A stretch of 64,000 nucleotides of DNA from Escherichia coli (lineage in GTDB: Bacteria > Pseudomonadota > Gammaproteobacteria > Enterobacterales > Enterobacteriaceae), in assembly GCF_044647545.1 (NCBI RefSeq), contig NZ_CP172818.1. One strand, given 5' to 3'. Numbering within the stretch: position 1 is the stretch's first letter; every line of letters starts with the position of its first letter. This document shows, in pieces, positions 2,902 to 4,488 of the stretch. Under the pieces are notes generated by a model that saw only the letters and a list, made by a program, of their open reading frames with translations, ran no database searches and had not been told where the DNA came from. The translations under genes were made by a program, and so were the position numbers.

Positions 2902-4245
2902 ATGTTACCTTCTCAATCCCCTGCAATTTTTACCGTTAGTCGCCTGAATCAAACGGTTCGTCTGCTGCTTGAGCATGAGATGGGACAGGTGTGGATCAGC
3001 GGCGAAATCTCTAATTTCACACAACCAGCTTCCGGTCACTGGTATTTTACGCTCAAAGACGACACCGCCCAGGTGCGCTGTGCGATGTTCCGCAACAGCA
3101 ACCGTCGGGTGACCTTTCGCCCGCAGCACGGACAACAAGTTTTAGTGCGCGCCAATATTACACTCTATGAACCGCGCGGCGATTATCAGATTATCGTCGA
3201 GAGTATGCAGCCTGCCGGTGAAGGGTTGCTGCAACAAAAATACGAACAGCTTAAAGCGAAATTGCAGGCTGAAGGTTTGTTCGATCAGCAGTTAAAGAAA
3301 CCGCTTCCCTCCCCCGCGCACTGCGTCGGTGTGATCACCTCAAAAACCGGTGCTGCGCTACATGATATTTTGCATGTGTTAAAACGTCGCGATCCGTCTT
3401 TGCCGGTGATCATCTACCCCACCGCCGTTCAGGGTGATGACGCGCCAGGGCAAATTGTTCGCGCCATTGAACTGGCGAATCAGCGTAACGAATGTGATGT
3501 GCTGATCGTCGGGCGCGGCGGCGGTTCGCTGGAAGATTTGTGGAGTTTTAACGACGAACGTGTAGCGCGGGCGATCTTTGCCAGTCGCATTCCGGTGGTC
3601 AGCGCCGTCGGGCATGAGACGGATGTGACGATTGCCGACTTTGTTGCTGATCTGCGTGCGCCAACGCCGTCTGCCGCCGCTGAAGTAGTGAGCCGCAATC
3701 AGCAAGAATTACTGCGCCAGGTGCAATCGGCCCGTCAACGGCTGGAGATGGCGATGGATTATTATCTCGCCAACCGCACGCGTCGTTTTACGCAGATCCA
3801 TCATCGCTTGCAGCAGCAGCATCCACAGCTCCGGCTGGCACGCCAACAAACCATGCTTGAACGCCTGCAAAAACGGATGAGCTTTGCGCTGGAAAATCAG
3901 CTTAAGCGTGCCGGGCAACAGCAGCAGCGATTAACACAGCGGCTGAATCAGCAAAATCCACAGCCGAAGATTCATCGCGCGCAAACGCGCATTCAGCAAC
4001 TGGAATATCGTTTAGCAGAAACCCTGCGCGCACAGCTTAGCGCCACGCGTGAACGTTTCGGTAATGCAGTAACGCATCTCGAAGCGGTGAGTCCACTGTC
4101 CACACTCGCTCGCGGTTATAGCGTTACCAGCGCCGCTGATGGCGCGGTGTTAAAACAGGTTAAGCAGGTGAAAGTGGGTGAGACACTGACCACTCGCCTG
4201 GAAGACGGCTGGATAGAAAGTGAAAGAAAAACATCCAGCCAGTAA
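2902..4245 (+). CDS. xseA: Exodeoxyribonuclease VII large subunit, with an aberrant C-terminus (447 aa as encoded; the expected last ~14 residues are in another frame)
   Basis: Translation [39 protein letters not shown]... is XseA. The frame ends ...[15 protein letters not shown] at 4243-4245, whereas [14 protein letters not shown] is encoded in a different frame ending at 4269-4271. Confidence 0.85.
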
Positions 4246-4268
4246 AAAAATCGCGTAAAAAGGTGCAT

Positions 4269-4488
4269 TAAGCCAGCACGAATTCAACGCGTTTTTTCGA
4301 TATTAAACCATGCCCATGCTGACAGAAGTAATCCACTGCACCACAAGCTTTTAACACCTGCAACGCCTGATGACACTCAGGACAAAGTGCCTTGATTTCG
4401 GTAAATTTTCTCCCGCAAGATCGACAACGAGCATCTCGCCGTTATCCTGATCAAGCATCATGCTAGATTGTGGACAATGCAGTTCCAT
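4269..4488 (-). pseudogene. yfgJ: yfgJ-like zinc-ribbon small protein, frame-disrupted
   Basis: Minus-strand ATG at 4486-4488 gives MELHCPQSSMMLDQDNGEMLVV... and stops after 45 codons. A second frame encodes ...ARCRSCGRKFTEIKALCPECHQALQVLKACGAVDYFCQHGHGLISKKRVEFVLA* ending at 4269-4271. The start-to-stop span is 220 nt, not a multiple of 3. Too short in either frame to appear in the ORF track. Confidence 0.45.

Follow-up and report, generated by a model that had tools for sequence, protein, structure and literature searches.

The xseA locus as assembled

The window, a stretch of 64,000 nucleotides of Escherichia coli DNA, carries guaB, xseA, yfgJ and der in the same neighbourhood as in K-12, where XseA (WP_000937912.1) is the large subunit of exodeoxyribonuclease VII and comprises 456 aa with its basic tail in frame. 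As assembled, the xseA open reading frame of the window occupies positions 2902–4245 of the plus strand, from the ATG at 2902 to the TAA at 4243–4245, and encodes 447 aa ending in ESERKTSSQ. The K-12-type basic tail lies out of frame at 4227–4271 on the same strand, in the frame read from 4152, and terminates at the TAA at 4269–4271. The preliminary description had proposed a frame broken nine codons early and one nucleotide short of K-12, with the tail displaced to the neighbouring frame, and on all these points the reading-frame analysis and the K-12 comparison bear it out. In the alignment, the sole difference within the tail lies at 4225–4226, where K-12 reads GAAGTAAAAAAC and the window reads GAAAGAAAAAC (4222–4232). 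At the level of codons, GAA-GTA-AAA-AAC of K-12 has become GAA-AGA-AAA-ACA at the frameshift site (plus strand, 4225–4227), and the frame is broken after E441. The lesion, GTA to AG with a net loss of 1 nt, is thus a complex change, not a one-base homopolymer slip.

The body of the protein appears sound. The catalytic residues of XseA, D155, R205, H238 and D241 (PMC3439923), are all at their expected positions, and PF13742, PF01336 and PF02601 have precomputed matches on a protein sharing residues 1–441 with the XseA of the window, so that the OB fold and the ExoVII_Large catalytic region that mark the family are both present. The C-terminal domain, which spans approximately residues 390–456, forms a domain-swapped β-barrel and supports dimerisation in the XseA4·XseB24 complex (PMC10835039), is incomplete at its Lys/Arg-rich end, where RKTSSQ replaces residues 442–456. 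This substitute tail had been described as neutral, but its net charge is +2, compared with +6 for either natural tail. Deletion of residues 397–456 yields an inactive enzyme (PMC3439923).

The damage is not restricted to xseA. The adjacent gene for the zinc-ribbon protein YfgJ (minus strand, 4268–4488), which is intact and encodes 71 aa in K-12 and in the ST648 genome used for comparison below, is split in the window into two frames, MELHCPQSSMMLDQDNGE... followed by ...ARCRSCGRKFTEIKALCPECHQALQVLKACGAVDYFCQHGHGLISKKRVEFVLA*; it has sustained several indels, and one of its zinc-ligand cysteines is gone (CPQC to CPQS). Both the broken yfgJ and the anomaly of the whole 4202–4556 stretch had escaped the preliminary description.

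Lineage of the window and XseA tails in Escherichia

The window derives from an ST648-type genome of phylogroup F. Compared with an ST648 chromosome (NZ_CP008697.1), positions 1–4201 show 0 differences (100.000% identity), positions 4557–22062 a single SNP, and positions 22162–64000 one substitution and a few indels; furthermore, positions 4600–12000 are 100% identical to ST648-type strains of phylogroup F. At substitution sites that discriminate K-12 from ST648 outside the patch at 4202–4556, the window is of ST648 type at 1,671 of 1,672 and of K-12 type at 1. The body of xseA is likewise of ST648 type, with 95.1% identity to K-12, that is, approximately 5% divergence, which is visibly higher over the last ~100 nt before 4201. 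The out-of-frame tail is that of K-12 XseA, whereas the gene body to which it is attached is not.

The C-terminal tail of XseA comes in two very divergent versions in Escherichia (window 4202–4271; ST648, L005 7944–8011). The version not found in K-12, GDGVV(I/V)SEVS.V.K(S/T)RKPRKK..., was seen in the alleles examined from ST648, E. fergusonii, E. albertii and E. marmotae; the sinH island lies downstream of it in ST648 and IAI39. Every natural Escherichia XseA allele examined has a Lys/Arg-rich tail, and the net charge is approximately +6 in both types, which suggests that the charge of the basic tail may be under selection. The natural XseA proteins of ST648 and IAI39 (WP_000937904.1 and WP_000937921.1) are 455 aa long and end in the tail that differs from that of K-12; the native ST648 protein is present on at least 1000 contigs. 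Relatives of the same lineage ending in ESERKTSSQ, which the preliminary description had named as an outcome that would speak against a lesion, were looked for in the protein, metagenome and GTDB-representative collections described below, and none was found.

The order of genes at the natural locus of ST648 and IAI39 is xseA, an 8-kb adhesin gene, sinI, sinH, an intact and very divergent yfgJ, and der. Beyond the equivalent of window position 4201, the ST648 locus (NZ_CP008697.1 3,554,762–3,569,549) reads GCGATGGCGTAGTGATC... and leads into the adhesin/sinI/sinH island, which spans ~11.7 kb in ST648-type genomes and is polymorphic in its presence among E. coli. This island presumably resembles the CS54 island located at the xseA-der site of Salmonella. 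A leftover xseA tail on the distal side of the island was not found in either ST648 or IAI39.

Several further differences between records of this lineage were noted. In ST648 (L005 1–3177), a prophage with genes for an integrase, RecT and a methyltransferase lies directly downstream of guaA; this prophage is missing from CP092703.1, a sibling assembly considered below, and the window itself begins inside guaA. Two genes, sseB (L005 38583–39360) and yphA (L008 10593–11014), are annotated as frameshifted in the ST648 RefSeq record (NZ_CP008697.1); these are probably errors of that record, the sequence of the window not being at fault. At each of these two sites a homopolymer of the window differs by one base from that of ST648, A6 versus A7 at ~22807 and T5 versus T4 at ~41869. 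Finally, WB61, a strain of the ST648 lineage, has a small chromosome of ~4.69 Mb, so that a 4.50-Mb chromosome alone is no red flag.

A 355-bp mosaic in place of the island

The frameshift is embedded in an anomalous patch of 355 bp (4202–4556), which stands in place of a ~12-kb segment of ST648 (L005 7944–19957) comprising the alternative xseA tail, the island, yfgJ and the yfgJ-der spacer. The patch consists of two parts. Positions 4202–4267 are K-12 sequence apart from the GTA-to-AG change, whereas positions 4268–4556, which cover yfgJ and the spacer to der, are a per-base mosaic of K-12 and ST648 sequence interspersed with indels. Among the 113 discriminating sites in this second part, 69 are of K-12 type and 44 of ST648 type, and the parental type alternates 38 times within 289 bp, over columns in which K-12 and ST648 are only ~57% identical to each other. 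A further 16 columns, most of them at indels, agree with neither parent. The assignment of sites to parents differs between the inside and the outside of the patch with a Fisher p of ~1e-92. Because 44 bases are exactly those of ST648, the source data must have held an ST648-type yfgJ; the K-12 tail, together with 69 bases that are exactly those of K-12, in turn implies that sequence of K-12 type went in as well.

The edges of the patch coincide exactly with the limits of alignable homology, and ST648-type SNPs restart ~3 nt to the left and ~6 nt to the right. Mosaic and boundaries alike are read directly from the alignments. Aligned to ST648, the 355 bp of the patch differ in 65 columns, counting mismatches and gap positions together, against 0 differences in 4.2 kb of one flank and 1 SNP in 17.5 kb of the other, a disparity that does not fit a genuine allele. 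Frameshifts, too, are limited to the patch; all other coding indels of the window relative to a 97%-identical reference keep the frame.

Other structural-variant sites in the window

Within the 64 kb, K-12 and ST648 differ by structural variants of at least 10 nt at five sites, and at all five the window matches neither genome. The patch is one of these; the remaining four are pure deletion-derivatives of ST648 sequence. The largest of the four is a stretch of 96 nt with only 5 G residues (22066–22162), which stands for a ~500-bp timP/sseB' duplication in ST648. Its alignment to ST648 comprises 94 matches, 0 mismatches and 61 deletions, 28 of G and 21 of T, with a score of 111.5 versus 12.9 ± 8.0 for shuffled sequences, and the retention of bases ranges from 20% for G through 57% for T and 79% for C to 88% for A. 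None of the 5,426 complete E. coli genomes searched covers this stretch, which overlaps the 5' end of a match to the IS128 sRNA (22138–22338).

The three other scars are small. One, in the pepB-iscX terminator hairpin (25003–25024), has lost 10 nt of ST648 sequence where K-12 has an additional 165 bp; another, in a REP element between iscR and trmJ (30834–30836), lacks 13 nt where K-12 has ~150 bp extra; and at 52392 a 7-nt deletion (TTTTTCA) has removed the T-run after a terminator hairpin, where K-12 again has ~150 bp extra. All three sit exactly at the sites of the ~150-bp insertions of K-12. By contrast with the window, ~17 ST648-type complete genomes share one common structure at these sites, and agreement with ST648 there is what one would expect of a natural clone-mate. 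The private differences of the window thus fall only at structural variants, at five of five sites, as they would in a templated artefact, and this co-location is a direct observation.

Distribution of the allele and a sibling assembly

The allele was sought in several collections. Among the 5,426 complete E. coli genomes, the best match to the patch has 86.6% identity; positions 4100–4400 have no good full-length match, and matches of at least 99% identity reach only to ~4201. The patch of the window and the hybrid junction are both absent from this set. As no 100% full-length match was returned, neither the source record of the window nor CP092703.1 belongs to the RefSeq complete-genome set. 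In a collection of ~15 billion proteins, a single NCBI contig, of 4,499,902 bp, is the only one to carry the 447-aa XseA, and likewise the only one for a 45-aa YfgJ fragment. A 32-nt word spanning the frameshift had 0 matches in the metagenome and GTDB-representative collections. A degenerate control pattern, in turn, retrieved 34 metagenome contigs, all with a K-12-type junction and the tail in frame (GT(A/T)AAAAAC), and the hybrid junction was present on 0 of these 34. Hence, the same lesion was not found in independent genomes of related strains, and the absence of the allele from the collections searched is an observation, not a conjecture.

We also rebuilt "repaired" proteins, in which the body of the XseA of the window was joined to the tail through each residue possible from restoration of one base. 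The version with the K-12 residue, Val, exists in the 15-billion-protein collection as UMQ20878.1, encoded on CP092703.1 (GCA_022488285.1), an E. coli chromosome of 4,677,367 bp; the versions with K, R, S, T, M, Q and E had no match there. CP092703.1 resembles the window in its ST648-type flanks, in the same two breakpoints, in the missing island and in the K-12-type patch between the breakpoints. Unlike the window, its patch is pure K-12 sequence and leaves both xseA (456 aa) and yfgJ (71 aa) unbroken, whereas the patch of the window is additionally sprinkled with ST648-type bases and indels.

The purity of the sibling patch is itself anomalous. Over its 351 bp (L009 11301–11651), it shows 0 differences from K-12 where the flanks are ~3% diverged, so that ~10 differences would be expected at that divergence. 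Zero differences, bounded by the limits of homology, are the signature of template fill-in. Thus, the patch in CP092703.1 is probably filled in from a template, and that record would likewise lack an island that is really present. At the prophage site beside guaA, CP092703.1 is not identical to K-12, which makes this site neutral as a second template signature.

Discussion

Here, we analyzed a frameshift that appears to deprive the large subunit of exonuclease VII of its basic tail. The preliminary description took the strain to make an XseA with a short substitute tail. Our results do not support this claim, given that the lesion lies inside a 355-bp K-12/ST648 mosaic with flanks identical to ST648; an assembly error, which the same description had named beforehand as the outcome that would overturn it, is where the evidence points. 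We consider it very likely, judging from the sequence comparisons, that the frameshift arose artificially, through assembly or polishing on a reference template. Under this scenario, a template of K-12 type would have served as the backbone for data from an ST648-type strain, or as the reference for their polishing. Collinear regions would have come out as true ST648 sequence, whereas the ~11.7-kb island could not have entered such a build and would therefore be missing. The K-12 tail of xseA would have been kept from the template and then received the spurious GTA-to-AG edit, the highly divergent yfgJ would have become a base-by-base blend of template and strain, and the K-12-only insertions would have been excised imprecisely. 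Indeed, template sequence is found where the lineage has none, at 4202–4267 of the window and in the patch of CP092703.1, which is 100% K-12. A template-based pipeline, the software involved and the sequence that the strain really has are what we infer from these observations. Most likely, the real strain encodes the 455-aa XseA normal for its lineage, with the island and an intact yfgJ downstream of it.

The fit is not perfect in every detail. A simple model in which uncovered K-12 reference is kept does not account for everything, because the window lacks all three of the ~150-bp insertions private to K-12; by the same token, plain gap filling on a K-12 scaffold was rejected as only a partial fit, given that the other scars are deletion-derivatives of ST648 and no K-12 hybrids. 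Nor does such a model account for the G/T-biased dropout in 22066–22162.

Alternatively, the island-less hybrid could be real in the form seen in CP092703.1, with the tail and yfgJ intact, and the frameshifts of the window would be local sequencing errors. The exact match of CP092703.1 to the repaired 456-aa protein, its intact YfgJ and its identical breakpoints all speak for such a hybrid. Nevertheless, we regard it as very unlikely: if the true sequence were of K-12 type, random error could not yield 44 exact ST648-type sites in yfgJ against 16 that match neither parent; the 0% divergence of the CP092703.1 patch from K-12, next to flanks at ~3% and with breakpoints at the limits of homology, is a template signature in its own right; and the junction was found neither in the 5,426 complete genomes nor in the metagenomes.

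It is also conceivable that the locus is real as deposited, in which case an ST648-type strain would have lost the island through an island-less segment from another lineage that has since decayed. After all, the deposited sequence reads this way, the body and catalytic residues of XseA are intact, and the island is polymorphic in E. coli. Such a history, however, demands 38 changes of parental type within 289 bp between alleles of ~57% identity, crossovers 3–6 nt from the limits of homology in flanks without long identical stretches, and ~10 indels and at least 40 substitutions in 355 bp next to flanks with 1–2 SNPs in 60 kb. Moreover, no donor allele turned up in the 5,426 genomes or the metagenomes, and each of the four other corrupted sites would require a separate explanation. 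We therefore hold this route of island loss to be very unlikely, and its predicted products, a 447-aa XseA that lacks the basic tail as well as a yfgJ pseudogene, very improbable too.

That the basic tail could be regained on the A-rich run, through programmed ribosomal frameshifting or slippage during transcription, is hardly credible: the site is indeed A-rich (GAAAGAAAAAC) and the downstream frame does encode the full conserved tail, but the tail is in frame in 34 of 34 metagenomic K-12-type alleles and in all complete genomes compared, no relative has such an arrangement and it is not conserved across the orthologues examined, neither a stimulatory structure nor a conserved slippery heptamer was identified, and the surrounding stretch is full of other non-biological features.

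Several further candidates were considered and rejected. General homopolymer or long-read error is incompatible with the preservation of frame by the other coding indels and with collinear sequence that departs from ST648 by 1–2 SNPs in 60 kb. A natural third allele of yfgJ and the xseA tail is contradicted by the best genome match of 86.6% and by the absence of the frameshift word from the metagenome and GTDB-representative collections. Homologous recombination between K-12-type and ST648-type alleles fails on the 38 switches and on breakpoints placed at the limits of homology; K-12 and ST648 differ too often in the adjacent flanks for these to support homologous exchange. Mutation in situ cannot yield 65 differing columns in 355 bp with 1–2 SNPs in 60 kb of flank, and a consensus of mixed strains would not leave the flanks free of K-12 alleles (K-12 type at 1 of 1,672 sites).

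What, then, would the lesion mean if it were real? That there exists an ST648-type E. coli truly without the island, with a decayed hybrid segment and an ExoVII large subunit lacking the basic tail, strikes us as a faint prospect. The change, confined to residues 442–456, would be expected to have a mild effect or one limited to the role of the basic tail, and the tailless XseA would constitute a natural test of that role, for example in DNA binding or the stability of the holo-complex, and perhaps also in tolerance to quinolones. The XseA of the strain is most likely normal, however, so that the frameshift has little biological importance.

If the frameshift is a templated artefact, as we favour, its value lies in quality control. 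Both the chromosome record that contains the window and CP092703.1 would hold template-derived sequence at structural variants, the ~11.7-kb adhesin/invasin island would have been silently lost from both, and calls of gene content, pseudogenes and virulence factors at such sites would be wrong in both.

A known phenomenon with which the window can be compared is template carry-over, or reference bias, in reference-guided assembly or polishing. As in the window, its errors are confined to sites that differ structurally between strain and template: large insertions are lost, unspanned template is kept, and hyper-divergent segments emerge as mosaics.
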